Positions 1,630 to 24,735 of a stretch of DNA of 32,436 bases are shown here, one piece after another. The notes beneath the pieces were generated by a model. The model was not told the DNA's origin, searched no databases, and was given only the letters and a program-made list of their open reading frames with translations. Source of the DNA: Bdellovibrionales bacterium (GTDB lineage Bacteria; Bdellovibrionota; JAFGOL01); the NCBI GenBank assembly GCA_022707945.1, contig JAKIZQ010000004.1, positions 1 through 32,436 of the forward strand, in the 5' to 3' direction. Numbering within the stretch: position 1 is the first letter of the stretch; the number at the start of each line of letters is the position of its first letter. A program made the translations under genes and the position numbers.

Positions 1630-4251
1630 CTATCTATTAGATATGAATTCTTTTATCTTTGGTAATGCACCCACTAATTTACTTATATCAACTCCTCCAC
1701 CCTGAACATATTCTGGATTTCCGCCACCTTTTCCACCAACCAAAGAACTTAGATACTTCATAAGTTCAGAAGCTGGTATTTTTGATGAAGCTTTTTTAGA
1801 GGCAGTTATAACTATGGAGGAGCCACTATCACTACCAGTATAAAGTATCGCAAGGTCTATGCCTTTTGACTTAACGTACTCAGAATATTCACGTAGATCT
1901 TTGGCAGAAGCTCCATTCACTTCTGTAAAAAGGAACTTAATATCATTTATTTGTTCTGCAGATCCTATTGATCTTTCAAGGACCCCTTTTGCAAGAACAG
2001 ACCTAAATTCATCATTTTCTTTTTTGAACTTTTTATTCTCTTCTAATATTTGCCCTACCTTATCCATAAGTTCAGGTTCTGAACATTTAAGTTCATTAGA
2101 GACTTGTTTAACTATCTTTTGGGCAGATTCAAATATTTCATAGGCGTTAAAGGACGTGGTAGCACGTATCCTTCTAACACCAGCACCGGTACTTTCTTCT
2201 GCTATTATCTTAAAGACACCTATATCAGAAGTATTGTTAACATGAGTCCCACCACAAAGTTCAAAGCTCTTATTACCTATCTTTACCACCCTTACTTTGT
2301 CGCCATATTTTTCATCGAACAAAGCCATGGCGCCACTCTTAACTGCATCATTGTATGACATATATGAAAAAGAAACTCCGTCCCCTCTTAATATCCAAAG
2401 ATTAAGTTCTTTTTCTATTTCACTCAAAATATCATTAGGTATTTTTTCATAATGATTAAAATCAAAAGTAAAAAATTTGCTGTTAACCAAAGACCCAGCT
2501 TGTTTTACATGCTCACCAAGTTTAGCTCTTAATAGATGATGTAACATATGGGTTGCTGTATGATTGTTCTGTATAAGATGCCTTAATTCTTTTGACACAA
2601 CAAGATCATACTCTTTGCCTTTCTTTATATTAGAAGATACTTCAGAAACTAAATGGAGATGAATACCAGACACAGGTTTTTGTACAGACACTACTTCTGC
2701 AAGTTCCTTACCGTCAAGTTCGATAGTACCAGTGTCTGCTATTTGTCCTCCAGATTCGGCATAAAAAGGTGTTTTGTCGAATATTAAAATACCCTTATCG
2801 CCTTTATTCAGCTCTTCTACTATTTTGCCGTCCTTAATGATCAATAGACATTTTGCTTTAGATGAAAATTCCTCATAACCAATAAAATCAAATTTTATTG
2901 AAGACACTGCTGTTTTAACGACTTCTATATCGGCATCACTTATCTTTGAATCTGTTGATTGATTCTTTGTTCTTGCTGTTCTTGCCATAGTCCTTTGGTT
3001 CTCCATTTCTTTTTCAAAACCAGCAATATCTACGTCTATATCTTTTTCCTTACATATCATCTGTGTAAGATCCAAAGGGAAACCATAAGTGTCATAAAGT
3101 TTGAACGCTGTTTGACCGTTAAGTTTTTTGCCTTTACTTAAAGAAGCTAACTCCTTCTCTAAAAGACTTAATCCCTTATCAAGTGTTTCAAAGAATTTTT
3201 CTTCTTCTGATAGCAATATTTTTTGTATATCATTTTTTGATGAAACGAGTTCGGGATATGCATCCCCCATTAGATCGCAAACTACTGGAATGTTCTTATA
3301 AAGGAACGGTGAGTCAAAACCAAGCAGCTTTCCATGGCGAATAGCTCGTCTTATTATCCTTCTTAATACATAACCAGCTCCTTCATTAGAAGGAAAACAG
3401 CCGTCACTTATTAAAAAAGCAATACTACGAAGATGGTCTGCTATGGCGTTGCAAGAACCTTCGTGTTCTTTGCCTTTTTGTATGTGCTTTTTTATGTTCT
3501 TAAACACGTCTATATCATAATTGCTAGCCACACCCTGCATCACTGCTGTAAGCCTTTCTAAACCTGCACCAGTATCTATGCTTGGTTTTGGAAGTTTTGT
3601 TAATTTGCCTTTTTCATCTCTATTGTACTGCATGAAGACCAGATTCCATATTTCAACATAACGGTCACAGTCACAGCCAACCTTACAATCTGGTTTTCCG
3701 CAACCATGTTCAGAACCATGATCATAGTATATTTCTGAACAAGGGCCACAAGGTCCAACTTCGCCCATAGACCAAAAATTATCCTTATCACCTAACCTGA
3801 ATATTTTATTTGTAGGTACGCCAATATTCTTGTTCCAAAGATCATATGCCTCGTCGTCGTCTTTGTATACCGTAATAAAAAGTTTATCTGTTGGTATTCC
3901 ATATCTCTTTGTAAGAAGTTCCCAAGCATATTCTATTGCTTCTTTCTTAAAATAATCTCCAAAAGAAAAATTACCTAACATCTCAAAAAAAGTATGATGT
4001 CTGTAAGTAAAGCCTACATTCTCAAGATCGTTGTGTTTACCTCCAGCCCTAACACATTTTTGACAAGAGCTAGCTCTTTTATAATCCCTTGAATCAAGGC
4101 CAAGAAAAACATCCTTGAATTGATTCATCCCTGCATTAGTGAACAAAAGTGTTGGATCTTTTTTAGGAAGTAGGTTTGAGCTTGGAACTACAGTGTGTCC
4201 TTTTTCTTTGAAATAATCTAAAAATATTTTTCTGACTTCAGATATCTTCAA
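1630..4251 (-). CDS. alaS: Alanine--tRNA ligase
   Basis: 873 aa with class II AlaRS motifs (FTNAGMNQFK, HHTFFEMLGNFSFGDY), editing-domain HTATHMLH and CGGTH, and a C-terminal DHHA1-like tail. The stop lies 2 nt from the PBP start. Confidence 0.97.
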   Translation of the reverse strand: MKISEVRKIFLDYFKEKGHTVVPSSNLLPKKDPTLLFTNAGMNQFKDVFLGLDSRDYKRASSCQKCVRAGGKHNDLENVGFTYRHHTFFEMLGNFSFGDYFKKEAIEYAWELLTKRYGIPTDKLFITVYKDDDEAYDLWNKNIGVPTNKIFRLGDKDNFWSMGEVGPCGPCSEIYYDHGSEHGCGKPDCKVGCDCDRYVEIWNLVFMQYNRDEKGKLTKLPKPSIDTGAGLERLTAVMQGVASNYDIDVFKNIKKHIQKGKEHEGSCNAIADHLRSIAFLISDGCFPSNEGAGYVLRRIIRRAIRHGKLLGFDSPFLYKNIPVVCDLMGDAYPELVSSKNDIQKILLSEEEKFFETLDKGLSLLEKELASLSKGKKLNGQTAFKLYDTYGFPLDLTQMICKEKDIDVDIAGFEKEMENQRTMARTARTKNQSTDSKISDADIEVVKTAVSSIKFDFIGYEEFSSKAKCLLIIKDGKIVEELNKGDKGILIFDKTPFYAESGGQIADTGTIELDGKELAEVVSVQKPVSGIHLHLVSEVSSNIKKGKEYDLVVSKELRHLIQNNHTATHMLHHLLRAKLGEHVKQAGSLVNSKFFTFDFNHYEKIPNDILSEIEKELNLWILRGDGVSFSYMSYNDAVKSGAMALFDEKYGDKVRVVKIGNKSFELCGGTHVNNTSDIGVFKIIAEESTGAGVRRIRATTSFNAYEIFESAQKIVKQVSNELKCSEPELMDKVGQILEENKKFKKENDEFRSVLAKGVLERSIGSAEQINDIKFLFTEVNGASAKDLREYSEYVKSKGIDLAILYTGSDSGSSIVITASKKASSKIPASELMKYLSSLVGGKGGGNPEYVQGGGVDISKLVGALPKIKEFISNR

Positions 4252-4702: not shown

Positions 4703-5780
4703 GAGCCTTCTTGCCAGTTGTTTTTCCTGCTGGTTTTACTTCCTGTTCCACCGTGTTGCTTTTAACACCATGGTGAGCAAGTATCCTGTTCTCTATTTCT
4801 TTTGATATTTCTGGATGCTCTCTTAGGTATGTTTCAACACTGTCTTTACCCTGACCTATCTTGTCGCCGTTATAAGAGAACCAAGAACCACTCTTGTCTA
4901 TAATGTTAGCGTTAACTCCGCAGTCTATAAGTTCACCTATTTTTGATATACCCTGTCCGTATATTACATCAAACTCAACTTCTCTGAATGGTGGAGCCAC
5001 CTTATTCTTAACTATTTTAACTCTGGTCCTGCTACCTATATTATTTTCGCCATCCTTTATTGCTCCAACTCTTCTTATGTCCAATCTTACAGATGAATAG
5101 AATTTTAATGCATTACCACCTGTAGTTGTTTCTGGATTACCAAACATAATGCCGAGTTTCATTCTTATTTGGTTAATGAAAACGACTATACATTTTGACC
5201 TGCTTATGCTTCCAGTAAGTTTTCTTAGTGCCTGTGACATTAATCTTGCTTGCAAGCCCATGTGTGAGTCACCCATGTCGCCTTCTATTTCTGCTTTAGG
5301 CACAAGTGCTGCCACAGAGTCAACTATAAGAATATCCACAGCACCAGATCTAACAAGTGTATCGGTAATTTCTAAAGCTTGTTCGCCACTATCTGGCTGA
5401 GATATCAAAAGATTCTCGGTATCAACACCAAGTTTTCCAGCATAACTAACATCAAGAGCATGTTCAGCATCGACAAAAGCGGCCACACCACCGTTCTTTT
5501 GTGTTTCAGCTATCATGTGTAAAGCCAATGTTGTTTTTCCAGAAGCCTCTGGACCATAAACTTCCACGATCCTTCCTCTTGGTATACCACCAACGCCTAG
5601 AGCTATGTCTAAGCCTAAAGAACCAGTAGATACAACGTCTATAGTTTTATCTAACTTGTCATCTTCACCAAGCCTCATGATAGAGCCTTTACCAAACTGT
5701 TTCTCTATAGAAGAAACCGCCAACTCAAGTGCTTTTTTCTTGTCCTGAACAGACAAGTTGTTCGTTGTTCCTATTGCCAT
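4677..5780 (-). CDS. recA: Recombinase RecA
   Basis: 367 aa with [12 protein letters not shown], Walker [19 protein letters not shown] and INQIRMKLG. Confidence 0.98.
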
Positions 5781-5781
5781 T

Positions 5782-6240
5782 TCACCCTCCTAATAGAATA
5801 GATATTATCCATAGAATAATTCCTGCATAAAGACCAGCCATCACATCGTCCATTACGACCCCGATTCCTTTTGGCAAACGCTCAAAATTCCTAACTGGCC
5901 AAGGTTTAAAGATATCAAAAAGTCTGAAAAGGGCAAACCCTAAAAGGCCCATATAAAGCTGTTTTCCCACAAATAGGATACTCACAAGATATCCACAAAA
6001 TTCATCTATGACTATCTTTTGGCTATCCTTTTCGTTGTACACTTTTTCTGCCAAGCTACTGATATAACAAGATAAAATTATCAATACGAGTGTTAACATT
6101 AAAAGACTAAACTGTGACATATGTCTTGCGTAGAAATACCAAAATAAAAAACCACCAAGAGTACCAAAAGTCCCTGGCGCCACTGGTATATAACCCAAAC
6201 CTAATACAGAGACAAAAGATCTTACAAATATATTTTTCAA
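5782..6240 (-). CDS. pgpA: Phosphatidylglycerophosphatase A
   Basis: 152-aa membrane protein with [35 protein letters not shown] and [10 protein letters not shown], typical of the PgpA family. Confidence 0.85.
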
Positions 6241-7245: not shown

Positions 7246-9615
7246 TTAAGCTACAGCTTTAACCTGTTTTTTTGAACCCTTAAAGAATTCTACAGACTCT
7301 ATCTTCTTGGGCAACAGTGCCGCATCAATAACATCATCAACTCTTTCAACAAATATGAATTTAAGCTTCTTTTTAAATTCAGCTGGTATGTTCACAAGGT
7401 CCTTCTTGTTCAACTCTGGAGCTATAATAACTTTTATACCAGCCCTCATTGCCGCAAGTGCTTTTTCCTTAAGCCCTCCTATAGGAAGAACCTTTCCAGA
7501 TAAACTTATTTCTCCAGTCATTGCAACATCCTTTGATACAGGACGACCAGTTATATGTGAAATTATAGCCGTAGCTATTGCAATACCAGCAGAAGGTCCA
7601 TCTTTTGGAACAGCACCAGAAGGAAAATGAACATGTACTTCGTTATGCTGAAAATAATCTTCTGCTATGCCATACTGCTGTGCCATGGTTTTAACATAAC
7701 TAAGGGCGGTGGTTGCAGATTCTTTCATTACTTCACCAAGGTTACCTGTCATCTTTAGTCCACTACCTTTAGAAGAAGCAACTTCTATCATCAATATCTC
7801 ACCACCATATTGTGTCCAAGCAAGACCGGTTGAGATACCTATTTCATCACTAACATTCTTTTCTTCTGATATGTACAAAGGACAGCCAAGATATTTTTCT
7901 ACCAACTGTGGTGTTATCTTTTCTGGAAAATTTTTATCAGTAGCTATAAGCTTTGCCGTCTTCCTGCAGATCTTACCTATAAGTCTTTCTAAGGTTCTAA
8001 CGCCAGCCTCTTTGGTGTACTGTGTTATTATTTTCAACAACACTTTGTCTGTAAATTTAATGTTTTTATTCTCTAAACCATTTTCATTTAGCTGTTTTGG
8101 TATCAAATGTTTTTGAGCTATTTTTATTTTTTCTTCTGAGGTGTAACCAGAAAGATTTATAGTTTCCATTCTGTCCCTTAAAGCAGGAGGTATTGTGTCC
8201 CACATATTAGCTGTAGCTATAAACATTACATTGGTAAGATCAAAAGGAAGGTTCATGTAATGGTCTCTAAAAGAAAAGTTTTGTTCTGGATCAAGAACTT
8301 CTAATAATGCAGAACTAGGATCACCCTTAAAATCTGCTCCAAGTTTATCTATTTCATCGAGTACAAAAACAGGATTATTTGTACCAGCCTGTTTAAGACT
8401 TTGTATTATCTTGCCTGGCATAGCTCCAACGTAGGTACGTCTATGACCCCTTATTTCTGCCTCATCCTTAACTCCACCAAGAGATATTCTTACAAACTTA
8501 CGGCCAAGAGCCCTTGCTATGGATTTTCCTAATGATGTTTTACCAACTCCAGGTGCGCCAACGAAACAAAGTATAGGTCCTTTTATTTTCTTATTAAGCT
8601 TACTAACAGCAAGATGCTCTATTATCCTCTCCTTTATTTCTTCAAGGTCATAATGATCCTCGTCTAATATTTTCTTTGCATGCTCAAGGTCCATATTATC
8701 TTCGCTATTTATCATCCATGGTGTTTCTGTTATCCACTCAAGATACGTCCTTAATACCGCAGATTCACTTGCATCAGGATGCATTCTTTCTAATCTATCA
8801 AGTTGTTTAAAAGCCTCTATTTTAACTTCTTCTGGCATTTTTATTTCTGTAAGCTTTCTTCTTATATCGCTCATGTCTTCATTTTTTCCGTCGTTGTCAC
8901 CAAGTTCAGACTTAATCGCTTTCATCTGTTCCTTTAAGAAGTATTCTTTTTGAGCTCTTGTCATTTCGTCTTTTGCCATATTGTTTATTTTGTTCTGTAA
9001 AGAGATTATCTCTGCTTCTTTCAATAGATGTTCATTAACTTTATATAGTTTCTTTAAAGGATCTGTTTGTTCCAATATTTGCTGTGCATCCTGTGCATTA
9101 AGTCCAATGTTGGCCGCTATTATGTCTGCTATCTTGCTTCCGTCTTTTATTTCATCCATTACTACAAGTATGTCTGGTGAAAGCAGTTTTCCCATCGCTA
9201 CTATTTTTTCTATTTGCTCTCGGATGTTCCTCATTAAAGCAGATATTTCCGGATTGCTTACATCAAGTTCTTTCTCTTCTATATTCTCTACTTTAACTTT
9301 AAAGAACGGATCTGTCTGTTCAAACGATTTTATTACAGCTTTATGCATCCCTTGTATAAGAACTTTTGCTCTCCCGTCTGGAAGTTTTTTCATTCTTACT
9401 ATCATTGCAACAGTACCTGTTTCATATATCTGATCTGGTGTTGGTGCTTCATCTAGCATGTTTTTTTGTGCAGATAGGAACACCAACCTATTACCTTCAA
9501 GCGCTTCTTCTACGGCTTTTATAGAATTATCCCTGCCAACAAAAAGTGGAAGTATCATATATGGGAAAACTACTATGTCCCTAACTGGTAATAACGGCAT
9601 TACAGAAGTACTCAT
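7246..9615 (-). CDS. lon: ATP-dependent protease Lon
   Basis: 789 aa with an N-terminal LON substrate domain, AAA+ Walker A GAPGVGKTS, and a protease domain containing PKDGPSAG (catalytic Ser). Confidence 0.97.
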   Translation of the reverse strand: MSTSVMPLLPVRDIVVFPYMILPLFVGRDNSIKAVEEALEGNRLVFLSAQKNMLDEAPTPDQIYETGTVAMIVRMKKLPDGRAKVLIQGMHKAVIKSFEQTDPFFKVKVENIEEKELDVSNPEISALMRNIREQIEKIVAMGKLLSPDILVVMDEIKDGSKIADIIAANIGLNAQDAQQILEQTDPLKKLYKVNEHLLKEAEIISLQNKINNMAKDEMTRAQKEYFLKEQMKAIKSELGDNDGKNEDMSDIRRKLTEIKMPEEVKIEAFKQLDRLERMHPDASESAVLRTYLEWITETPWMINSEDNMDLEHAKKILDEDHYDLEEIKERIIEHLAVSKLNKKIKGPILCFVGAPGVGKTSLGKSIARALGRKFVRISLGGVKDEAEIRGHRRTYVGAMPGKIIQSLKQAGTNNPVFVLDEIDKLGADFKGDPSSALLEVLDPEQNFSFRDHYMNLPFDLTNVMFIATANMWDTIPPALRDRMETINLSGYTSEEKIKIAQKHLIPKQLNENGLENKNIKFTDKVLLKIITQYTKEAGVRTLERLIGKICRKTAKLIATDKNFPEKITPQLVEKYLGCPLYISEEKNVSDEIGISTGLAWTQYGGEILMIEVASSKGSGLKMTGNLGEVMKESATTALSYVKTMAQQYGIAEDYFQHNEVHVHFPSGAVPKDGPSAGIAIATAIISHITGRPVSKDVAMTGEISLSGKVLPIGGLKEKALAAMRAGIKVIIAPELNKKDLVNIPAEFKKKLKFIFVERVDDVIDAALLPKKIESVEFFKGSKKQVKAVA

Positions 9616-9780: not shown

Positions 9781-10140
9781 TCAGGCCAATCTTTTTTGTT
9801 CTAATTCTATGTCTTGCATACAATCAACACATAGTGAACAAAAAGGTTGTATCTTTAATCTTTCATAAGAAATTGGTTCTCCACAACTTTCACAACAACC
9901 ATAGTCACCTTCATCCATTCGTTTAAAGGCTCTTTCTATGTCCAGAAGACATCTTCTGTCCCTAGTTTGAATTGTGCAACTAAGGTACTGATTAACTTCT
10001 TCTACTGCATAGTCGCCTTCGTCAGAAGGTTTTTGATCATTCTCCATCATTTGCCTGAAAGCATTGCGAGAGCTGTTGAGAAGGTCCTCTTTCTTTTTCA
10101 TCAGTGTGGAACGAATCGATTCCAACTGCTTATTAGTCAT
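9781..10140 (-). CDS. DksA/TraR-family C4 zinc-finger protein
   Basis: C-terminal CESCGEPIS...CSLCVDC four-Cys finger behind a coiled-coil region. The tracked ORF extends to 10173. However, AGAGGGGGG lies 7 nt upstream of the ATG at 10140 (MTNKQLES...), which favours the shorter start. Confidence 0.8.
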   Translation of the reverse strand: MTNKQLESIRSTLMKKKEDLLNSSRNAFRQMMENDQKPSDEGDYAVEEVNQYLSCTIQTRDRRCLLDIERAFKRMDEGDYGCCESCGEPISYERLKIQPFCSLCVDCMQDIELEQKRLA

Positions 10141-15410: not shown

Positions 15411-15953
15411 TTATTTCTTTTTTGCCACACTAACTTTACTTGGTCTTATAACTCTATCTTTTAACAAATACCCTTTTTGGTATTCGTTAACTACCGTGCC
15501 GTTTTCATGTTCTTCTGTTTCTATTTGATCCATTGCTTCATGGAACTCCGGGTTGAATTTCTCTCCCACAGAGTTCAGTTCTTTAACGCCGAATTTTGAA
15601 AGAACATCGTTAAATTGTTTTAATATCAGTTCTATGCCGTTCAAAAATTTTTCGAACTGCTCTTTATTATTTTCACATTCAGATGAATGTTCTTTTGCCC
15701 TGCAAAGATTATCTATTACTGGCAATATCTCTTTTATTATCTTTTCATTGGCATAACACAATTGTTGATCTGCATCCCTAGAGATCCTTTTATTGATATT
15801 CTCAAGGTCAGCATAAGCATATAAGAGTTTTTGTTGTGTTTCTTTTGCCTTCAAAAGATCTTCATACTCTTTCTTTTCTATTGTTACCATTTTGTCATCC
15901 TTATCTTGAGTATGCTTTTTTTCTTCATGATGTTTTTTGTTGTTCTCTGTCAA
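15411..15953 (-). CDS. grpE: Nucleotide exchange factor GrpE
   Basis: GrpE-like coiled coil plus C-terminal beta domain (FNPEFHEAM...GYLLKDRVIRPSKV), directly upstream of dnaK. The tracked ORF runs to 16022. I favour the in-frame TTG at 15953 because AAGGAGG sits 8 nt upstream of it, whereas the ATG codons at 16022 and 15977 have no SD. The start remains uncertain. Confidence 0.85.
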   Translation of the reverse strand: MTENNKKHHEEKKHTQDKDDKMVTIEKKEYEDLLKAKETQQKLLYAYADLENINKRISRDADQQLCYANEKIIKEILPVIDNLCRAKEHSSECENNKEQFEKFLNGIELILKQFNDVLSKFGVKELNSVGEKFNPEFHEAMDQIETEEHENGTVVNEYQKGYLLKDRVIRPSKVSVAKKK

Positions 15954-15979
15954 AGCTCTAAACCTCCTTTGTCTCATAA

Positions 15980-16016
15980 ATGAAATATGGTAATGCCGCG
16001 CTCTAGAGTCAAGGGC
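15980..16016 (-). promoter_or_regulatory. Candidate sigma32 (RpoH)-type heat-shock promoter for grpE-dnaK-dnaJ
   Basis: The minus strand reads CCCTTGACT-N14-TACCATATTT, compared with the consensus CCCTTGAA-N13-17-CCCCATNT. It is located ~30 nt upstream of the grpE SD. No CIRCE inverted repeat was seen. Confidence 0.5.
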
Positions 16017-16082
16017 AGGCAAGAAAATACTTGAAAATACTTGGCAAAATGGGTATAGAGTGGGGGCTAAACATTAAAGGCA

Positions 16083-16158
16083 GTCCCCATCGTCTAGCGG
16101 CCTAGGACATGGCCCTCTCAAGGCTAAAACACGGGTTCGATTCCCGTTGGGGACGCCA
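16083..16158 (+). tRNA. tRNA-Glu (anticodon CUC), CCA encoded
   Basis: 76-nt cloverleaf: acceptor GTCCCCA/TGGGGAC, D arm GTCT-AGCGGCCT-AGGAC, anticodon arm TGGCC-CTCTCAA-GGCTA, T arm ACGGG-TTCGATT-CCCGT, discriminator G, then CCA. It closely parallels canonical bacterial tRNA-Glu. Confidence 0.93.
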
Positions 16159-16248
16159 AGCTTTCAATTCAATAAATCCAAAGTGATGCAAAACACCCCA
16201 AACAGGACTCTCGAACTCGCTACAATAAAAATGTAAACTAATGTCCTT

Positions 16249-16812
16249 TTACTTAACTATCGAGTCATATACTTTTTCAAGTTTTTTAAATTTAATAGCA
16301 TTATCGGGTGTAAGTTTTACCTCTAATGTCTTACCTTTTTTAAAATTCAAAGGAATGCTCCAACCAATTGCTCCATCATCAGCCCCTATCATTCTAGTAA
16401 CTAGCCAAGCTTTTGGTAAACAATTAGTTTGGTGTCCATGTTTGAAAGGCGTATCTTTATTAATATTGTTCTGGAGATCCCAAATATGAGAGCCTGTAAC
16501 TGTATCTAAAACATGGTTCCAATAATTAACTACCATATTCTTTTTCTCTGATATGTTTGTACCTTCAATTTTTTGATCAGGTTTAATTTTTATTAGTTTT
16601 TCCCTGTCAGCAGTTATCTTCTTTTTAAAATGTTCCATCGGATCTTGTCGTACTACTGTAAAAAGGACATAGTTTATTCCTTTTGGGTATTGCAATTTAA
16701 ATTCAGCATTACAAATTTCATTTTCAACATCATTCCCTTTTTTAGAAGCAAAAGCTGATGAGTTTAATAAAAGACCACATGTCACAATAAAAATTCCAAG
16801 GATTTTATTCAT
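16249..16812 (-). CDS. Secreted hypothetical protein (cassette 1)
   Basis: 187 aa with a signal peptide (MNKILGIFIVTCGLLLNSSAFA) and a good SD (AAGGGAGG, 5 nt before the ATG). I recognise no family. Confidence 0.7.
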   Translation of the reverse strand: MNKILGIFIVTCGLLLNSSAFASKKGNDVENEICNAEFKLQYPKGINYVLFTVVRQDPMEHFKKKITADREKLIKIKPDQKIEGTNISEKKNMVVNYWNHVLDTVTGSHIWDLQNNINKDTPFKHGHQTNCLPKAWLVTRMIGADDGAIGWSIPLNFKKGKTLEVKLTPDNAIKFKKLEKVYDSIVK

Positions 16813-16882
16813 AACGTCCTCCCTTTAAGTTCTAAACGTCATTGTACTGCTCCTTTTAATTTTAGTATAGTGAGACTATGTC

Positions 16883-17010
16883 AGTTCGAGTTTTTCTACT
16901 TGGACGCCCTTGTTTTCTTAAGCTCTTTTGTGAAAGCCCAGTATTTACAAGGTTCTTCAGGCTACACACTCAATGCAAGCGGTTCGAAACTCATCTACTA
17001 GGGGACGCCA
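16883..17010 (+). repeat. tRNA-Glu-derived ~128-bp repeat, copy R1
   Basis: It begins AGTTCGAGTTTTTCTACTTGGACGCCC and ends GCGGTTCGAAACTCATCTACTAGGGGACGCCA. It is collinear with R2 and R3 over the full length. The last 10 nt are identical to the 3' end of tRNA-Glu. Confidence 0.9.
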
Positions 17011-17130
17011 TCTTTTTTTATTTAACAATTTCAAATCGATATAAAACACCCCAAGCAGAACTTCCAAACCGTGCGACAAATGCATATATCTATGTTTAAA
17101 TGATCATAATATCCTGATGGAGGCAAATAA

Positions 17131-17778
17131 ATGAAAAAAATAAAAGCAACTAGAAATAAAATAATAGCTCTACTAATATTGGTCATAATCTTTTTGTTCG
17201 GTATTTATACATTTAGATATTCTGTAAACAGCAGTTACAAGATTTCTTCTCATGGTGATATCCCAACCTTAAAAATTGGAAGACATGTGACCGTAAGTAA
17301 ATTAGCTTATGATTTTAGGTTTCCAATCATCGGTAAACTAATAAAAAGAAACGATCCTGTTAGGGGCGACCTTATAGTTTTCATTCCGCCTGATGGTAGC
17401 TCTAAATTTTATGTTAAGAGAGTTATTGGTGTTCCTGGTGATAAAATTAGAATTGCTGGCGACCGTCTTTACATAAATGAACGTCTAGTAGAAAAGGAAC
17501 AAATACCTTTTTCTCCAACCATGGATGATATAGATAACAAAGAAGAATATAATTCTAACAAATATGCCCTTTATAATGAAAATCTTGAAGGGACTAAACA
17601 CCTTGTTCTTCAGGCCAAAGATAGAGACTCAATGTTGGGAAATTTTAGTATTGAAATTAAAATCACCGAAAACTCTTATTTCGTCATGGGGGAAAATAGA
17701 GACAATAGTATTGATAGTCGTGTGTTTGGTCTTGTAGGTAGAAACTCCATTATTGGAAAAGTCACACTGGATAAGTAA
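17131..17778 (+). CDS. Signal peptidase I (S26) family paralog lacking the canonical nucleophile Ser (cassette 2)
   Basis: 215 aa with an N-terminal TM helix. S26 boxes are present: RGDLIVF, YVKRVIGVPGD (general-base Lys kept) and GENRDNSIDSR. Box B reads SSHGDIPTL where LepB has PSGSMMPTL, which places Gly at the catalytic Ser position. A GGAGG SD precedes the ATG. Confidence 0.8.
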   Translation: MKKIKATRNKIIALLILVIIFLFGIYTFRYSVNSSYKISSHGDIPTLKIGRHVTVSKLAYDFRFPIIGKLIKRNDPVRGDLIVFIPPDGSSKFYVKRVIGVPGDKIRIAGDRLYINERLVEKEQIPFSPTMDDIDNKEEYNSNKYALYNENLEGTKHLVLQAKDRDSMLGNFSIEIKITENSYFVMGENRDNSIDSRVFGLVGRNSIIGKVTLDK

Positions 17779-17789
17779 TAATCCGCCGT

Positions 17790-17918
17790 GGTTCGAGAAT
17801 TTCTACTTGGGCGTCCCTGTTTTTCTTGGGGTGTTCTGTGTAAACTCAATGTTTTTAAGGCTCTTCAGGCTATATACTCCATAACTGCGGTTCGAAACTC
17901 TTCTACTAGGGGACGCCA
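17790..17918 (+). repeat. tRNA-Glu-derived ~128-bp repeat, copy R2
   Basis: GGTTCGAGAATTTCTACTTGGGCGTCCC...GGCTCTTCAGGCTA...GCGGTTCGAAACTCTTCTACTAGGGGACGCCA. GGCGTCCC (17810-17817) is the perfect complement of GGGACGCC (17910-17917). Confidence 0.9.
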
Positions 17919-17935
17919 CATAGAATCGAACTGAC

Positions 17936-18190
17936 TCATTTATAGACTTCTTTTCTGTGGCCTATTTTCACAATTAGGACAACTTCTTTTTCAATAACAT
18001 AGATTATTCTATAGTCTCCAACTCTAAGTCTTCTGCAACCTTTAAGACTATATTGTAGAGGTTTACCGAATCTTACAGGGTCATTAACAAGTTTTTCCTC
18101 TATTGCTCTTTTTATTTTGAGCTTATCCGGCTTTGAAAGGCTCGGGATGTCATCCTCAACAACACTTTCAAGATATTCTATCTTATACAT
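17936..18190 (-). CDS. RelE/ParE-family type II toxin (cassette 3)
   Basis: 84 aa with the hallmark GKPLQYSLKGCRRLRVGDYRIIYVIE...VKIGHRKEVY. Its start abuts the antitoxin stop (18190/18191). Confidence 0.9.
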   Translation of the reverse strand: MYKIEYLESVVEDDIPSLSKPDKLKIKRAIEEKLVNDPVRFGKPLQYSLKGCRRLRVGDYRIIYVIEKEVVLIVKIGHRKEVYK

Positions 18191-18412
18191 CTATTTCCAC
18201 GCTTTAGAGTGAGCTACTCTTTTTCGTTTCTGACTTAAACGATTGTCGGCAATCTCAGAAAAATAAATGTCTTCTTCCCTTTCTAAAGACCTCTTTATTA
18301 AGTCAAGACTAACACTAGACAGAGATTGTTTGGCTTTATCTGCTATTTTCTTTAAAACCAGAAAAAGCTCATCCTCTAGCGTTATATTTATTCTTTGCTT
18401 TGCTGTTGGCAT
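18191..18412 (-). CDS. Ribbon-helix-helix (CopG/RelB-like) antitoxin
   Basis: 73 aa. The N-terminal RINITLEDELFLVLKKIADKAKQSLSSVSLDLIKRSL fits an RHH fold. It is translationally coupled to the toxin, and a GGAG SD precedes the ATG. Confidence 0.8.
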   Translation of the reverse strand: MPTAKQRINITLEDELFLVLKKIADKAKQSLSSVSLDLIKRSLEREEDIYFSEIADNRLSQKRKRVAHSKAWK

Positions 18413-18435
18413 TTGTTTATCTCCTTCTATTCATA

Positions 18436-18465
18436 AGTGTAACACAGGTGTAGCACTCTTGTCAA
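18436..18465 (-). promoter_or_regulatory. Toxin-antitoxin promoter with overlapping imperfect palindrome (putative operator)
   Basis: The minus strand reads TTGACA-18 nt-TACACT, ~20 nt upstream of the antitoxin SD. The imperfect inverted repeat GTGCTACAC/GTGTTACAC overlaps the spacer and the -10. Confidence 0.55.
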
Positions 18466-18490
18466 CGCAAAAGTTAAACCTATCAACATT

Positions 18491-18619
18491 AGTTCGATTT
18501 AATCCACTTGGGCATCCTTGTTTTTCTATGGCTGTTTAGTGGGAATCCAATAGTATCAAGGTGTTTCAGGCAACATACTCTATACAGGCAGTTCGAAACT
18601 CATCTACTAGGGGACGCCA
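18491..18619 (+). repeat. tRNA-Glu-derived ~128-bp repeat, copy R3
   Basis: AGTTCGATTTAATCCACTTGGGCATCC...GTTTCAGGCAA...GCAGTTCGAAACTCATCTACTAGGGGACGCCA. The 3' 30 nt are near-identical to R1 and R2. Confidence 0.9.
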
Positions 18620-18721
18620 AGTATTAATTAATAAAAAGCTTTTACGGTACGAACAAAACTTTGGTTATAACTCTTATATGATCAGATGTTTTTATAATCT
18701 ATTTTCTATAACACCACCCTA

Positions 18722-19480
18722 TTACCACGTGATAAAAAGATTATATGTTGAACCAGGTTCTACCAATAGCTTTTGATCAAATGTTAGCGCAAGCTTGTTT
18801 TGTTTTAACAACGCTTTATTAAGTAATAGAGAAAACTCATACTTATCTTTAACACAAACAACCTTATCTAGTCCCATTATCTCATCATTACACTCTTCTG
18901 TTTTGTATTCGGTATTGCATGTAAAATATATTGTTTCTAAATTAAATAAACTTTTTAATTTACTAACTGGAAGATCTGAAACTATATATATAAGACTTTT
19001 ACATTGAGGTTCAAAGCTTTGTTTTGATACAAGTACAGAACTAATAACAGATTCCAATTTACTAAATGTAACAGGAGTTTTATCTACATCAAAGGTCTCA
19101 GGATTCTTACTGTCAATCTTTTTGCCTAAAACAAGTTTATAAGTAGCACCACCTAACAAACGGTCCTTAAACACATATTTATACTTATAGAAGTCCTTGT
19201 GTTTAAAAACAATAGAGTTGTAATTTGTAGCATAATAAAAAGTATAACTTTTCTTTTTATTATCGTATTCAACTGGATCTTTCACGCCATAAGAACTAAA
19301 GGAAACTTTCTCGATATCACTATATATAGTAAGCTTTGCACAAGCCCTATCATTAACATCCTTAACAGTTACTTCTGGTTCTTTGTCAAGTTTAACAAAT
19401 TCAGAAACTTCAAATTCAAAAGAGAATAAGTTTAAAGAAATTAAAAACAAGAACAAAAAATAAAAAGATTTCACAAACAC
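18722..19480 (-). CDS. Secreted hypothetical protein, paralog A
   Basis: 252 aa with a signal peptide followed by FEFEVSE. It is collinear with 19610..20344. The GTG start is uncertain; the second GTG at 19474 has better SD spacing. Confidence 0.7.
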   Translation of the reverse strand: MFVKSFYFLFLFLISLNLFSFEFEVSEFVKLDKEPEVTVKDVNDRACAKLTIYSDIEKVSFSSYGVKDPVEYDNKKKSYTFYYATNYNSIVFKHKDFYKYKYVFKDRLLGGATYKLVLGKKIDSKNPETFDVDKTPVTFSKLESVISSVLVSKQSFEPQCKSLIYIVSDLPVSKLKSLFNLETIYFTCNTEYKTEECNDEIMGLDKVVCVKDKYEFSLLLNKALLKQNKLALTFDQKLLVEPGSTYNLFITW

Positions 19481-19609
19481 CTCTTTTTAGTTAGGTCTAT
19501 TAAAATTTTACTGAATTATACCTTGGTTGCTTCGGAATTTGCTAGAGAAATAACCCATACATACAGCTCAAGACGCATCCATTCGGTAAAGTTCAAGCCT
19601 TGGAAAAAA

Positions 19610-20344
19610 TCAACGCCAGCTAATTAATAAATTATAAACTAGATTTTTTTCAATAGTTATATCACCTATAGCGCTTTTATCTAAGGAACGTATATTATTT
19701 AGAAGCTCATTAAAACTAACAAGTTTTTTTATACAAATCATTTTATCTATATTTTCAACTGGCTCAGAACACGGAGGTGTTTCACAAGAAACATGTGTAA
19801 TGTCTTGGTTAAACAGAGTTTTAAGTGTTTTAACAGGAAGATCAGAAATTAATCTTATTGCAGCTTTGCAGTCTTCGTTTTTCATGTATCGGACCGTCAT
19901 ATCAGAAGGGTCCATTTCTAATGAATTAAAAACAATTTTATTTTTAGAAATCTTAAATTTATTAGGGTCCTTACTGTCCTTTTTTGTGCCTAAAGATACC
20001 TTATACGTTTTGCCTTTCTCTACTCCTTTAAAAGTGTAGTAATACGGAACGTATTCTTTGTGTTTAAACCAAAGAGACTTAGAACCCCAAGGGAGATAAA
20101 GAATATAGGTGTTGTTAGGTTTATTATTTTCAATTCCCACTATACCCAAACTACCAGATCCAAAATTAACATCATTAATTTCTGTAGACACAACAACTTT
20201 AGCACAAATATCATTGTTTTGATCCTTAATCGTTATCTCAGGAGATTTGGCTACCTCTGCCATTTCTGATATTTCAAACTCAAAAGCACAAAGAGAAAAT
20301 GGCATAAGTATAAAAAGCATATAGCCAACTTTTTTTAGATTCAT
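19610..20344 (-). CDS. Secreted hypothetical protein, paralog B
   Basis: 244 aa with a signal peptide followed by FEFEISE, and a GGAGGGG SD. Motifs shared with paralog A: PE[VI]T[VI]KD, CAK, FKHK, TYK, DSK.P, SDLPV..LK.LFN and C-terminal YNL.I.W. Confidence 0.75.
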   Translation of the reverse strand: MNLKKVGYMLFILMPFSLCAFEFEISEMAEVAKSPEITIKDQNNDICAKVVVSTEINDVNFGSGSLGIVGIENNKPNNTYILYLPWGSKSLWFKHKEYVPYYYTFKGVEKGKTYKVSLGTKKDSKDPNKFKISKNKIVFNSLEMDPSDMTVRYMKNEDCKAAIRLISDLPVKTLKTLFNQDITHVSCETPPCSEPVENIDKMICIKKLVSFNELLNNIRSLDKSAIGDITIEKNLVYNLLISWR

Positions 20345-20426
20345 CTACCCCTCCATTATTAAATATAGACTATTATATCTCATCTGTTTAATAAATGTCA
20401 CTCTTTACAAAAAAGTTAATATTTAT

Positions 20427-20456
20427 TTGACTTTGTTATGGGCATATGCTCATAAT
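20427..20456 (+). promoter_or_regulatory. Sigma70-like promoter abutting the DUF134 start (possible leaderless mRNA)
   Basis: TTGACT (20427-20432), an 18-nt spacer, then CATAAT (20451-20456). The ATG at 20463 lies only 6 nt after the -10, with no SD between them. Confidence 0.45.
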
Positions 20457-20462
20457 AAATAC

Positions 20463-20738
20463 ATGCGTCCAAAGAAATGTAGAAAGACCTGTTGTAGAAT
20501 AAAAGCTGATTACTTCAAACCAAGGAGCATTCCAATAGATGAACTAGAGGAGATTTCTCTTGAAGCAGATGAGCTAGAAGCAATAAGGTTAGCAGATCTT
20601 GACTCTCTATACCAAGAAGATGCGGCAAAAAAAATGGGTGTTTCCAGGCAAACTTTTGGAAGGATAATATTTTCTGCACACAAAAAAACAGCAGAAGCTA
20701 TCATAAAAGGTAAGGCGTTAAAAATCAGGAGGACTTAA
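20463..20738 (+). CDS. DUF134 (UPF0251) family putative DNA-binding protein
   Basis: MRPKKCRK..C..YFKP...LEADELEAIRLADLDSLYQEDAAKKMGVSRQTFGRI is the characteristic DUF134 N-terminal Cys/basic motif plus a sigma70-region-4-like HTH. The tracked ORF starts at the TTG at 20427; the ATG at 20463 is preferred. Confidence 0.8.
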   Translation: MRPKKCRKTCCRIKADYFKPRSIPIDELEEISLEADELEAIRLADLDSLYQEDAAKKMGVSRQTFGRIIFSAHKKTAEAIIKGKALKIRRT

Positions 20739-20740
20739 TT

Positions 20741-21112
20741 ATGAAAATCTGTATGCCAGTAAACGAGAACGATGGGATTAACAGCACTATTTGCGAACAC
20801 TTTGGTTCTGCACCATTATTCATGATAGTAGATACCAACACTCTCTCTATCACAGAAGTAAAGAATGATGATCAGCACCATGCGCATGGAATGTGTCATC
20901 CATTATCTGTACTTGGTAATTACAAATTTGACGGCATCGTTGTTGGCGGAATAGGTGCCGGTGCGTTAAACAAACTCAAAAACGCAGGAATAACAGTTTA
21001 TATAACTGAATACTCTAACATCAGCAACACTATCAAGGCCTATAACGAGAACAAACTAAAAGAAATGGATCAAAATAATGTTTGCTCTCACCACGGGCAC
21101 ACATGTAAATAA
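20741..21112 (+). CDS. NifB/NifX/NifY-like (dinitrogenase Fe-Mo cofactor biosynthesis domain) small protein
   Basis: 123 aa: MKICMPV...ICEHFGSAPLFMIVD...GMCHP...FDGIVVGGIGAGALNKLKNAGITVY, which matches the NifX_NifB fold family. It has a Cys/His-rich tail (CSHHGHTCK). A GGAGG SD is present, and the gene starts 2 nt after the DUF134 stop. Confidence 0.8.
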   Translation: MKICMPVNENDGINSTICEHFGSAPLFMIVDTNTLSITEVKNDDQHHAHGMCHPLSVLGNYKFDGIVVGGIGAGALNKLKNAGITVYITEYSNISNTIKAYNENKLKEMDQNNVCSHHGHTCK

Positions 21113-21121
21113 AGCAGAGAA

Positions 21122-21517
21122 CTATCTTATTACTTTACTCATGCCACAGCCAAAAATACTTTGATCCTGCAACCAAGAATAATTATCACCAACTCTAACG
21201 TAACAGGTATCACTATCAGAAAGGTCATAAGTTTCTGTGGCTGTGAATATCTCGCCATATCTTGTGCTTCTGTCTACGGTTTTACTAATCGTTCTATAAA
21301 AGCTCCAGGATAAAGAGATCTCTTTCTCCTTATCATCATACTTTTGTGAGAGAATAAAATCATCAGAACAAAACGCTTTTACTATTGATGGCGTTGATTC
21401 GTTATATTTCAACTCTACATAACAAGTATCATAAGTTTCAAACAAATCACCGGCAGTGATTACATAATAGTCAGGGCTAGCAAATAGCATCGAAGATAAG
21501 AAAATTAACAAAAACAT
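21122..21517 (-). CDS. Small secreted hypothetical protein
   Basis: 131 aa with a short signal peptide (MFLLIFLSSMLFASP). An internal duplication is suggested by ETYDTCYVELK and ETYDLSDSDTCYVRV. No family recognised. Confidence 0.6.
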   Translation of the reverse strand: MFLLIFLSSMLFASPDYYVITAGDLFETYDTCYVELKYNESTPSIVKAFCSDDFILSQKYDDKEKEISLSWSFYRTISKTVDRSTRYGEIFTATETYDLSDSDTCYVRVGDNYSWLQDQSIFGCGMSKVIR

Positions 21518-21520
21518 CTT

Positions 21521-21889
21521 TTACCTCCTAAGATGTGGGACATTATTACCAAATTCAATCAATACTCTAGAAACCCAAGAAGGTTCATTATTAGTATCAT
21601 CACCATTTTGTCCGCTGGTATTATTGGTGTTATTAGATTCAACACACATAATTCTAACACCATCTTCATGATTGGCTTTTATCCAAGCCGAACCATCATT
21701 CTCAAATTCTATTAAATGACACCTGCCACTAAGATCTATAACAGTTTTATCACAATAGTTCTTTATAACTTCTACATATACCTGTTTAATCCTTATGCCT
21801 TCTGCACCCATTTCAAGACTGTTACAGAACCAATCGGCCCACAAAAAATTTGAACTTAAAAAAGCGACAACAACGACTAATCTTTTCAT
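21521..21889 (-). CDS. Small secreted hypothetical protein
   Basis: The preferred start is the ATG at 21889 (MKRLVVVVAFLSSNFLWA), with a GGAGG SD 9 nt upstream. The tracked ORF extends to 21922. It has an Asn/Thr-rich low-complexity stretch and four Cys. Confidence 0.6.
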   Translation of the reverse strand: MKRLVVVVAFLSSNFLWADWFCNSLEMGAEGIRIKQVYVEVIKNYCDKTVIDLSGRCHLIEFENDGSAWIKANHEDGVRIMCVESNNTNNTSGQNGDDTNNEPSWVSRVLIEFGNNVPHLRR

Positions 21890-21982
21890 TTCTGATTTAA
21901 CCTCCAAAAGTTTATGAAGCAAACTTTTCCACTTAAAATACTTATTGTATAATTCATTATTTTAATGTATTGATGATTTTAA

Positions 21983-22846
21983 ATGAGTTTACTTTCACCA
22001 GAGCTAGAAGCTTTCGTCGCTATTGTACACAAGGGAACGGTACATGGTGCAGCAAAAGAAGTTGGTTTGACGCAGACCGGCATAACACAAAGAATTCGTT
22101 CCCTTGAGAGAAAAATAGGGAACACTTTATTCACAAGATCAAGAAAAGGCATGCACCTAACACAAGAAGGAGAAACGCTTTTTGTCTATTGTCAAAAGGT
22201 CATGGACATAGAGGGTGAAACGCTATCACTAATACAAGGCCAGAGCTCAAAAAAAATAGTAAGGATACAAATAGCGGGATCTTCAAGTATAATGAGAGCA
22301 AGAATAATCCCCAACACAGTAAAAGTATTAGAACAATTTAAGGATTTAACATTCACATATCATATTACAGACGATGAATCTCCAGTAAGATACCTGAAAT
22401 CTGGTGAATGTCAGTTTGCAGTAATGTCTCCTTTAGAAGTCCCAAACGAAATGGATGCAAAAAAGCTTGAGCCAGAAATATATATCATGGTCGGACCATA
22501 TGAATGGAAAAACAGAAACGTAGAGGACATACTTAAAAATGAGCGACTAATAGATTTTAACTATGGTGATAAGATAACCCTTAGTTTTTTAAAAAAATAT
22601 GGACTTGTTCATTTGACAAAAAAAGAAGGTCATTACGTCAACAACACAGATGCTTTGATATCTTTAATAATAAGAGGTCATGGTTATTCTGTGTTATCAA
22701 AAAGATTTCTTGAACCTTACATTAAGGATAAGAAACTAACACAATTAATGACTGGTTCTTTCTCTAAACTAGACTTTGCATTAGCATGGTATCCTAGGCA
22801 TGAGATGCCAAAATATTTCAAAAAAATAATAGATCTAATTAATTAA
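21983..22846 (+). CDS. LysR-family transcriptional regulator
   Basis: 287 aa with an N-terminal wHTH (LEAFVAIVHKGTVHGAAKEVGLTQTGITQRIRSLE) plus a LysR substrate-binding domain. Confidence 0.9.
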   Translation: MSLLSPELEAFVAIVHKGTVHGAAKEVGLTQTGITQRIRSLERKIGNTLFTRSRKGMHLTQEGETLFVYCQKVMDIEGETLSLIQGQSSKKIVRIQIAGSSSIMRARIIPNTVKVLEQFKDLTFTYHITDDESPVRYLKSGECQFAVMSPLEVPNEMDAKKLEPEIYIMVGPYEWKNRNVEDILKNERLIDFNYGDKITLSFLKKYGLVHLTKKEGHYVNNTDALISLIIRGHGYSVLSKRFLEPYIKDKKLTQLMTGSFSKLDFALAWYPRHEMPKYFKKIIDLIN

Positions 22847-24078
22847 TTCTTTTCATGTATCTTAAAGATTATTATAACCACAGCCAGTATAGACATGATC
22901 CCTCCAAATATAAAAGGGGCTTTATTACTGAAAGGATATATAAAACCAGCAATAAGACTCGCGGGCAAAAGTGCTACACCAACGATCATATTATAAAAAC
23001 CCAAGGCCGTACCCTTTGAATTTTGTGGAGCTAGCTCAGAGACAAAAGCTTTTTCTACGCCCTCTGTCATTGCATAATAAACACCATAAAGAGGCCAAAA
23101 GAACCATAAAAGCCAAGAGTATTGATGGCTCATAAAACCAAAGGCAATATAAACAACTGAATATAGGATATACCCCCATACCAAAAGTTTTTTTCTACCT
23201 ATTTTGTCTGAAAGTCCTCCAAAAAAAGAAGAGAATAAAGACGTAGTTATATTAAAAAGCATATACATCAAAAGGACACTAGAGATATCTTTATATAGAT
23301 TAGTGCTCCTCAATAACAAAAATTGGTTAGAGGAATTACCTAATGTAAAAATAAATTGAGCTAAAAAGAATACTCTAAGACTTTTGTCGTACTTTCTTAT
23401 ATCAAGGTTCGGTACGACCTTATTTGTCCCCTTGCCAAGATCTTTAGTCTTAATTCCCTTATCTGATACAAAGAACAAAAAGGATGCACCTACTAACGCA
23501 CTGCATACAGCAATTACAAATATCGGGTAAAAGACAGAAACTGGAGCTGACACACCTTTGTATATAACATCTCCAATTTCCGGATAAGCGTATTTAACAA
23601 GTACATATAACAGCGCCGTCCCAAAAAAAGCCCCCGCAAAATCCATGCCTCTTTGAAAGCCAAAAGCCCTACCCAAAAGGGTTTTGGGTGTCGATTCAGA
23701 AATAAGAGCATCCCTTGGGGCGGTCCTTATACCCTTGCCAGTACGATCTATAAACCTAAAAGAAAGAACTGAAAAAACACTTGGTATGAAAAGAAAGAGT
23801 TTTGAAAGAGCAGATCCAAAATAGCCAAACACAGCTAGCCACTTTCTTTTACCTAGTTTATCTGAATAATAGCCTGAAAGGACCTTTAAAACACTTGAAA
23901 GGGATTCGCCTATACCTTCCATCAAACCCAATACTGGCCCAACGTTAACGGTAATTACACTTACAAAGACCTGTAGCATTGGATATAGCATTTCAGATGA
24001 TACATCTGTGAAAAAAGAAGTTAGACCAGTGAGGACGACATTCTTATTAAGGTAAGACTTGCCACTTTTTGAACTCAC
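22843..24078 (-). CDS. MFS transporter
   Basis: 411 aa, multi-TM, with MFS loop motifs (DKLGKRKWL, DRTGKGIRTAPRDA, SDKIGRKK). It has a GTG start with a GGAGG SD and overlaps the LysR gene convergently by 4 nt. Confidence 0.85.
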   Translation of the reverse strand: MSSKSGKSYLNKNVVLTGLTSFFTDVSSEMLYPMLQVFVSVITVNVGPVLGLMEGIGESLSSVLKVLSGYYSDKLGKRKWLAVFGYFGSALSKLFLFIPSVFSVLSFRFIDRTGKGIRTAPRDALISESTPKTLLGRAFGFQRGMDFAGAFFGTALLYVLVKYAYPEIGDVIYKGVSAPVSVFYPIFVIAVCSALVGASFLFFVSDKGIKTKDLGKGTNKVVPNLDIRKYDKSLRVFFLAQFIFTLGNSSNQFLLLRSTNLYKDISSVLLMYMLFNITTSLFSSFFGGLSDKIGRKKLLVWGYILYSVVYIAFGFMSHQYSWLLWFFWPLYGVYYAMTEGVEKAFVSELAPQNSKGTALGFYNMIVGVALLPASLIAGFIYPFSNKAPFIFGGIMSILAVVIIIFKIHEKN

Positions 24079-24494: not shown

Positions 24495-24568
24495 TGGGAG
24501 ATCGTCTAATGGTAGGACTGCGGACTCTGACTCCGCCAATCTAGGTTCGAATCCTAGTCTCCCAGCCA
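24495..24568 (+). tRNA. tRNA-Gln (anticodon CUG), CCA encoded
   Basis: 74-nt cloverleaf: acceptor TGGGAGA/TCTCCCA, anticodon arm GCGGA-CTCTGAC-TCCGC, T arm CTAGG-TTCGAAT-CCTAG, discriminator G, then CCA. It parallels bacterial tRNA-Gln. Confidence 0.93.
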
Positions 24569-24601
24569 ACGTCAATTACACATTCAATTAATCAAGCTGG
24601 A

Positions 24602-24735
24602 TGGGAGACCATCTAAATATGTTTGCCGAGTTTCTAGACGAGGCAAACTTACCTCAAGGATCACTGGAGCGAGTCGCTCCTAAAAAAACATGCACGACGA
24701 GCGAAAGTAATCCTAGTCTCCCAGCCAACGTCAAT
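24602..24735 (+). repeat. Degenerate tRNA-Gln-like shell ending in a 27-bp perfect duplicate of the tRNA-Gln 3' end and trailer
   Basis: AATCCTAGTCTCCCAGCCAACGTCAAT occurs at 24550-24576 and again at 24709-24735, an offset of 159 bp. TGGGAGACCATCTA at 24602 matches the tRNA 5' end TGGGAGATCGTCTA at 12 of 14 positions. The interior does not fold as a tRNA. Confidence 0.85.

Follow-up and report, generated by a model that had tools for sequence, protein, structure and literature searches.

What is the repeat of about 129 bp that stands three times behind a tRNA-Glu gene of an uncultured Bdellovibrionales bacterium, with one or two genes ahead of each copy? The DNA analyzed is a stretch of 32,436 nt (contig JAKIZQ010000004.1 of assembly GCA_022707945.1), referred to here as the window. 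An earlier note on this stretch described each repeat as two modules resembling tRNA 3' ends around a decayed tRNA-Glu shell. It suggested that the whole could be a folded single-strand site with attC-like logic, a core-type binding-site pair, or a tRNA-mimic RNA. The most likely answer is that the three copies are docking sites of small mobile cassettes, inserted serially by a large serine recombinase (LSR). Judged from sequence comparison, the repeat (REP) is probably the attP-type arm of LSR elements that target tRNA-Glu, present in the chromosome as attR-type junctions. The observations behind this reading are the repeat family, the architecture of the cassettes, the linkage of LSR, tRNA and REP in relatives, and a spacing of 24 nt in the tRNA versus 29 nt in the repeat.

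The array behind tRNA-Glu

The window genome (G000) is a 1.29-Mb bin of 240 contigs and is 88% complete. The putative attB-side anchor of the array is tRNA-Glu(CTC) (16083-16158, + strand), called by ARAGORN and scored at 59 bits by the Rfam tRNA model. GGTTCGA lies at 16134 of this gene, and 24 nt separate the G of the T-loop (16135) from the 3' A (16158). The last ten nucleotides, GGGGACGCCA (16149-16158, + strand), are common to the tRNA end and to all three repeats, and are the probable region of crossover. The repeats lie on the + strand: R1 at 16883-17010 (module a ~16884-16909, module b 16982-17010), R2, the feature of the earlier note, at 17790-17918 (module a 17791-17817, module b 17890-17918), and R3, the final member of the array, at 18491-18619 (module a ~18492-18517, module b 18591-18619). 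Module b measures 29 nt in each. The repeat opens with module a, (A/G)GTTCGA(G/T)-N6-(T/C)AC-TTGG..., and finishes with module b, GTTCGAA-N7-TAC-TAGGGGACGCCA, the final 10 nt being identical to the 3' end of tRNA-Glu(CTC). The description of modules a and b was thus borne out from the sequence, and both recur, well conserved, in the 29 distinct copies gathered from relatives and metagenomes. The same note had GGTTCGA recurring seven times in the tRNA and the repeats. GTTCGA does occur seven times, but the full heptamer only four times (16134, 16981, 17790 and 17889), because three copies read AGTTCGA.

The first cassette begins directly at the tRNA with a left end of the type we call class 2 (16159-16221, + strand), which is 73% similar to the R1 trailer. 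Within it, a T-rich stretch, AATTCAATAAATCCAAAGTGATGC, precedes an inverted a-like module (~16192-16216, ending in CACCCCAAACAGGACTCTCGAAC). The gene of this cassette (16249-16812, - strand) encodes 187 aa and matches no Pfam family. Cassette 2 has a class-2 left end at 17011-17075 (+ strand) with a degenerate inverted a-like module (~17045-17069), and its gene (17131-17778, + strand) encodes an S26 signal-peptidase-like protein of 215 aa (Pfam PF10502, E 7.5e-39). Cassette 3 carries a ParE-family toxin (17936-18190, - strand; PF05016, E 4.7e-11) and an RHH antitoxin (18191-18412, - strand) with a weak Pfam match to RHH_5. No recombinase was found in the Pfam-scanned region around the array (15411-24078), which holds grpE and the tRNA upstream. 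A PF00239 search and tblastn found no serine recombinase in G000, an assembly in 240 contigs that is 88% complete. Two adjoining orphan ORFs of 252 and 244 aa (18722-20344, - strand) follow the last repeat; neither has a Pfam family, and the corresponding locus of G002 and G001 lacks both.

The repeat family and its cassettes

G000 holds only three copies of REP, all of them in the window array and all co-oriented. The repeat was found in five of nine genomes of this small uncultured order of Bdellovibrionota in the genome collection, and in 19 of the 21 metagenome loci returned by a pattern scan of contigs. The 29 distinct full copies align nearly free of indels, with a mean column identity of 77% and a mean pairwise identity of 70.7%. 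Similarity sets in abruptly at GTTCGAG and ends at GCCA. Scattered copies in both orientations, the mark of a dispersed MITE-type repeat, were seen neither in G000 nor in its relatives, where arrays are co-oriented only. Shortened copies exist: module a stands alone in L048, the 3' part stands alone in L030, and an internally deleted copy is present in L033. The L033 copy (32-106; contig C77 of G003) has module a and ~20 nt of spacer fused straight to module b, which is consistent with a deletion between the internal direct repeat AGGCnGTT.

REP copies are always co-oriented and 340-1500 bp apart, with one or two ORFs on either strand between them. The array starts directly after tRNA-Glu in the window, L045 and L048 (all CTC) and in L034 (TTC). 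Also in L034 (3707-3723; G005), a 17-nt sequence, GTTCGAAGTTTCTACTT, resembles the start of module a and abuts the 3' end of tRNA-Glu(TTC), with a full repeat one cassette further on. In relatives the site is unoccupied or otherwise filled; the distance from tRNA-Glu to the LysR gene is 1.3 kb in G001 versus 5.5 kb in the window, and homology with G002 picks up again at window position 20421. Cassette genes elsewhere encode lipoproteins, Fic, FGE-sulfatase-like proteins, IS256 transposase and reverse transcriptase. ORFs of ~350-410 aa adjoining the repeats were considered as integrases and rejected, since they belong to these same protein types. REP arrays also contain genes for a reverse transcriptase (RVT_1, N-terminal part Lcl_C-like) and for a transposase of the IS256 family, in L056 (1-1210, - strand), L061 and L054 (2748-3992).

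Several cassettes recur. The ParE/RHH cassette of the window is found again between other repeats on contig C190 of G008 (82% identical). A 393-aa lipoprotein cassette is shared by L052 and L057 (90% identical) and a cassette with a 98/71-aa gene pair by L062 and L043 (94% identical), each with different neighbors. The repeats flanking these cassettes are just 64-74% identical, against the family background of 70.7%. Repeats beside near-identical cassettes are therefore no more alike than random pairs, and REP is not simply inherited with its cassette.

Linkage to a large serine recombinase

An LSR gene adjoins the tRNA in relatives of the window genome. In L048 (contigs C27 plus C149 of G008), tRNA-Glu is followed immediately by an oppositely oriented gene for a 532-aa LSR (Resolvase and Recombinase domains), whose last 18 codons are antisense to the 3' half of the tRNA. 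PrimPol-AAA_25, SSB, DUF3768 and other genes follow, and a full REP is present at 9788-9946. In G003 the LSR C-terminus stands right behind tRNA-Glu at a contig edge, and in L042/L059 a REP is followed by a 3' fragment of the LSR gene. An LSR gene accompanies the sites of L048/G008, G003, G376, G098, G153, G187 and G378; none was found in the assembled 88% of G000. LSR elements of the relatives are closed by a REP or by its last 37-55 nt.

Across the phylum, LSR homologues were found in 44 of 401 sampled Bdellovibrionota genomes, and in 23 of 30 homologue loci the LSR gene and a tRNA gene are convergent, with overlapping 3' ends. The target tRNAs are Glu, Arg, Ser, Leu, Ala, Val and Phe. The element of G376, a member of a different family, is 10.7 kb long and lies at tRNA-Glu(TTC); its far end aligns gap-free to positions 77-129 of REP (53 nt, E 4e-6). 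The far ends of G153 (Arg-TCT), G187 (Ser-GGA) and G378 (Arg-TCT) align to the REP profile from positions 92, 93 and 75, respectively, through 129. In G098, G153, G187 and G378, a site 9-20 kb from the tRNA repeats the last 6-10 nt of the tRNA plus 0-6 nt of trailer.

The complete genome G234 has an LSR element at tRNA-Leu(TAA) (L104/L105; C1: 725025-737088). An exact copy of the 25 nt at the end of this tRNA stands 9.5 kb away and keeps the tRNA-type spacing of 24 nt, not stretched. This element also carries two a-like motifs, the first upstream of the LSR gene and the second ~230 nt ahead of the far copy.

No protein other than the LSR is common to the elements of L048, G376, G312, G234 and G098. 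The L048 element also encodes a tyrosine recombinase of 219 aa (7480-8139, - strand), beside the SSB, DUF3768 and Mrr_N genes, and a homologue with 41% identity lies at ~2937-3527 of the 5-kb contig C223 of G000. This small enzyme was considered as the recombinase of REP and set aside, as it is missing from the LSR elements of G376, G312, G234 and G098.

Spacing of module b and the probable crossover

The distance from the T-loop G to the terminal A is 24 nt in tRNAs versus 29 nt in 28 of the 29 repeats. The same 29-nt spacing recurs at the far ends of G376, G098, G153, G187 and G378, making six LSR lineages in all. In these five, the place of the decamer is taken by identity blocks of 10-14 nt, with a T-loop-like GTTC(G/T)A or ATTCTA ahead of the block in G098, G153, G187 and G378. 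The identity blocks of the other LSR lineages overlap only within the last ~7 nt of the tRNA.

In serine integrases, the motif of the zinc-ribbon domain lies at positions 16-24 of attP half-sites and is shifted 5 bp toward the center, to 11-19, in attB (Rutherford et al. 2013, PMC3783163). When the center is set at GGGGA|CGCCA (A71|C72), the T-loop motif falls at exactly 24-16 in REP and at 19-11 in the tRNA. This center was chosen to fit and its exact place is thus an estimate, while the difference of 5 bp is independent of that choice. The chosen center falls in the one segment that the identity blocks of all six lineages share. The sites thus show an identity block able to hold a crossover dinucleotide, together with an outer motif that lies 5 bp further out in the attP-type site. 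The heptamer GGTTCGA, proposed earlier as a crossover core, is probably not one; it behaves as an outer recognition motif, and crossover would fall in the shared 3' decamer. The earlier suggestion of a core-type binding-site pair pointed toward a recombinase site, and that direction held. The modules behave as half-sites of a double-stranded LSR attachment site would, with GGTTCGA as the probable outer motif.

We infer that an LSR inserts integrative elements at the 3' end of tRNA-Glu by way of module b. Module b would be the P-type half-site bound by the LSR, a copy of the T-loop hexamer and of the last 10 nt of the tRNA set 5 bp further apart, and this extra spacing would be the feature by which the integrase tells attP from attB. 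Crossover would take place inside GGGGACGCCA, with the center near GGGGA|CGCCA, so that each insertion would leave the tRNA intact. An inserted unit would consist of its own left end, its gene or genes, and a REP at its right end. By this structure the window would hold three tandem units, with the 187-aa protein, the S26 peptidase-like protein and the ParE/RHH pair, respectively, none with a recombinase of its own. The cassettes of the window may have been mobilized in trans or may be remnants of older insertions. Staphylococcal SCC composite islands include recombinase-less elements that are mobilized in trans.

Some features of the repeat go beyond a simple attachment site. An LSR attP needs only ~50 bp, and the ~100 bp conserved to the left of module b (module a and the central block) exceeds what such a site accounts for. 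G376 and this order share a conserved central block, GCAGCRTAYTCAAT, which a 50-bp attP would not include. Inspection by eye of LSR 3' ends and class-2 ends, to the right of the decamer, found no convincing mirror of module b (a P' half-site) in register. Canonical LSRs are not known to join attP to attL; adding units one by one behind a tRNA that is already occupied would therefore need relaxed pairing rules or another route.

The array might instead be the debris of successive full LSR elements that have lost their recombinase and replication genes, with immobile cassettes and non-functional repeats. We regard this as unlikely, though it agrees with the lack of an LSR in G000, the truncated LSR 3' end after REP in L042/L059, the shortened repeats of L048, L033 and L030, and the faster divergence of the repeats than of the cassettes beside them. 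It fits poorly with a module b that is nearly invariant in the three window copies and across the 29 copies, with identical cassette types between repeats that have different neighbors, and with the small and uniform size of the cassettes at many loci.

Folding, RNA and tRNA likeness

The 8-bp pairing reported for R2 is present: GGCGTCCC (17810-17817) is the exact reverse complement of GGGACGCC (17910-17917), 100 nt away. For R3 the pairing was said to hold with one mismatch; one A/C mismatch is there, but a T-G is present in addition. The orientation flip described for R1 (GGACGCCC) comes down to two point differences in a near-palindromic octamer, found in a single one of 29 copies and so no recurrent state. 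The search for compensatory changes that the earlier note had proposed as a check gave no double-sided change in the 8-bp stem, of which 88% of the cells are paired by conservation only. The covariation score of this stem was 0.133, versus a mean of 0.155 after shuffling, and 488 of 500 shuffles reached the observed value. A candidate hairpin in module a, counted explicitly, likewise showed conservation alone and no double changes. The consensus fold of the 29 copies (RNAalifold) had 4 pairs and -0.67 kcal/mol on the + strand and nothing (0.0) on the - strand. Single copies (eight REPs) folded no better than their shuffled versions, with z-scores of ~0.

These results speak against the reading of REP as an attC-type folded single-strand site used by a tyrosine recombinase such as the 219-aa enzyme of L048, which we consider very improbable. 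The array of cassettes with toxin-antitoxin and orphan secreted genes does recall an integron, an inverted 7-8-mer links modules a and b, and small tyrosine recombinases are present in L048 and on contig C223 of G000. The repeat, however, has no consensus fold, z-scores of ~0 and no compensatory changes; gene orientation within the cassettes is mixed; and the small tyrosine recombinase is absent from G376, G098, G234 and G312, of which at least G376 and G098 still end in b-type sites.

Searches for tRNA likeness in the repeats gave no Rfam match at gathering thresholds or at E<=10, the RF00005 tRNA model included, and no tRNA call by ARAGORN. The REP profile matched none of the 28 tRNAs of G000 in nhmmer. 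The supposed decayed tRNA-Glu shell was not recovered, as REP without its last 11 nt is no closer to tRNA-Glu than to the other 26 tRNAs of G000. Similarity of tRNA-Glu to the trimmed repeat ranks 10 and 19 of 28, and the best local match is the universal T-loop only. The loose alignment of the repeat body to the whole tRNA-Glu gene is not better than chance, and outside the T-loop hexamer and the last 10 nt tRNA-Glu has no lead over other tRNAs in likeness to REP. A scan for promoters and terminators inside REP found nothing consistent.

It is most improbable that REP is transcribed into a tRNA-like or structured small RNA that ends in CCA and is processed by tRNA enzymes. The T-loop-like heptamer and the exact 3' decamer with its encoded CCA would suit such an RNA. 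Against it stand the missing covariance-model match even at E<=10, the want of conserved structure on either strand and of a consistent promoter or terminator, and a b-type sequence that, across other LSR lineages, changes along with the tRNA targeted (Arg, Ser).

Module a and the left ends of cassettes

In 10 of 25 loci, a motif like module a, GTTC(G/T)A-N-...-GG(G/C)(C/T)G on the tRNA-sense strand, precedes the LSR start codon by 43-132 nt. The distance is 43-84 nt in nine of the ten, and the background rate of the motif is 0.008 per 200 nt. It matches the 3' end of the target tRNA of its own element with a mean score of 11.1, versus 8.7 for other targets (permutation p = 0.002, n = 11). Most of these motifs are stretched by +3 to +5 bp, and module a of REP by +4 bp. 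An inverted a-like copy forms the end of the class-2 left ends of cassettes. Such ends follow 10 of 39 distinct junctions, including the tRNA trailer and the R1 trailer of the window, and usually lie 40-90 nt upstream of a cassette gene on the + strand. From the a-like motifs near LSR genes and the class-2 ends, module a appears to belong to the LSR family and not to be a relic of tRNA-Glu. It has the look of a further half-site and could serve as an operator, an accessory site or a boundary.

Two narrower models of module a were also considered. Descent from a decayed attR of an LSR-only mini-element is unlikely, since the a-like pair of G234 is more alike mutually than to the tRNA, and a perfect 25-nt repeat exists 9.5 kb off. 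Modules a and inverted a as the true half-sites of the cassettes were rejected as the main model, as the 94%-identity block of L062 and L043 ends inside the modules and not at the predicted centers.

A joint reading of both modules can be put forward only tentatively, and we rate it as rather improbable. By this reading, the LSR family reads the universal T-loop as an outer element and the variable acceptor end as an inner element, and the extra a modules are further LSR sites that bracket the cassettes. A few base changes would then lead to new tRNA targets, and the attP half-site would always be the 3' end of a tRNA plus 5 bp. The further LSR-binding sites would be module a of REP, the direct copy 43-84 nt upstream of LSR starts and the inverted copy of the class-2 ends. 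They would regulate or enable LSR-driven capture and shuffling, giving a tRNA-anchored, serine-recombinase analogue of the integron.

Comparison with known systems

Serine-integrase attP/attB sites, SCC composite islands as generally known, and tycheposons appear to be the closest in working logic. As in the attP/attB sites of the A118/LI, Bxb1 and phiC31 class (PMC3783163), the LSR gene adjoins the site, a short identity block holds the crossover, and the outer motif lies 5 bp further from the center in the site of the element than in that of the host. Here, by contrast, the targets are tRNA 3' ends, with the LSR reading frame running antisense into the tRNA; the conserved arm is ~129 bp and not ~25 bp, no clear P/P' dyad is seen by eye, and tandem arrays are formed.

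SCC/SCCmec elements, moved by the LSRs CcrAB/CcrC, insert into the 3' end of a conserved gene, regenerate that gene, and form tandem arrays with direct repeats in which many units have no recombinase. The regenerated 3'-end target, the tandem direct-repeat arrays and the units without recombinase would all be shared with the present arrays. The elements described here differ in targeting a tRNA and not rlmH, in units of 0.2-1.5 kb that are far smaller, and in a longer junction repeat with two half-site-like modules.

The tycheposons of Prochlorococcus carry an integrase, a primase/replication module and cargo at tRNA genes (Hackl et al., bioRxiv 10.1101/2020.12.28.424599). Repeated insertion pushes older tycheposons outward and leaves partial tRNA repeats and remnants; most use tyrosine recombinases with partial-tRNA repeats of ~40 nt, and a minority use an LSR (10.1101/2020.12.28.424599). 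The L048 element resembles them with its LSR, PrimPol-AAA_25, SSB and far-end REP at a tRNA, next to which the three units of the window are cargo only. The repeat differs, being a non-tRNA arm of 129 bp that has just the T-loop hexamer and the decamer in common with the tRNA.

Integron attC sites and CALINs are likewise co-oriented repeats of ~60-140 bp that bound cassettes of one or two genes, toxin-antitoxin pairs included. REP differs in having neither the hairpin-forming imperfect palindrome nor an IntI, and its array has mixed gene orientation and is anchored at a tRNA. No IntI was found by Pfam next to the array (15411-24078), and the tyrosine recombinases of G000 are on other contigs.

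What is new here are elements, probably LSR-driven, that target tRNA 3' ends and whose 129-bp junction repeats separate mini-cassettes. Insertion at tRNA genes is usually credited to tyrosine integrases (PMC4383910). The whole LSR family described here, from 44 of 401 Bdellovibrionota genomes, is on the 3' ends of tRNAs for at least seven amino-acid types, and its element-borne sites appear predictable by the rule of a tRNA 3' end stretched by 5 bp. If true, this would provide a natural series of LSRs with related, distinct and predictable attB/attP pairs, and would help to understand, and possibly to choose, the specificity of serine integrases. It would also explain how very small genomes, of 1.3-1.7 Mb, gather orphan secreted proteins and toxin-antitoxin pairs in the form of mini-cassettes behind a single tRNA, and annotators could tell junction repeats from pseudo-tRNAs.

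Other inserts at tRNA genes

At 24495-24735 of the window, the 3' end and trailer of tRNA-Gln(CTG) (27 bp, 24550-24576) are exactly repeated at 24709-24735 around an insert of 132 bp. The arrangement resembles a further small integration scar, here at a second tRNA. On contig C170 of G000 (5300-6200; L125), a tRNA-Glu(TTC)-like gene without ~4 nt of the anticodon loop scores 46.5 bits in Rfam and was not called by ARAGORN. A noncoding insert of ~218 nt follows this gene and is closed by a 16-nt repeat of the tRNA end. Rfam gave no family match for inserts of this type. Similar noncoding sequence is found after tRNA-Glu in G001 (L063, contig C197) and after REP copies in L054 and L060.
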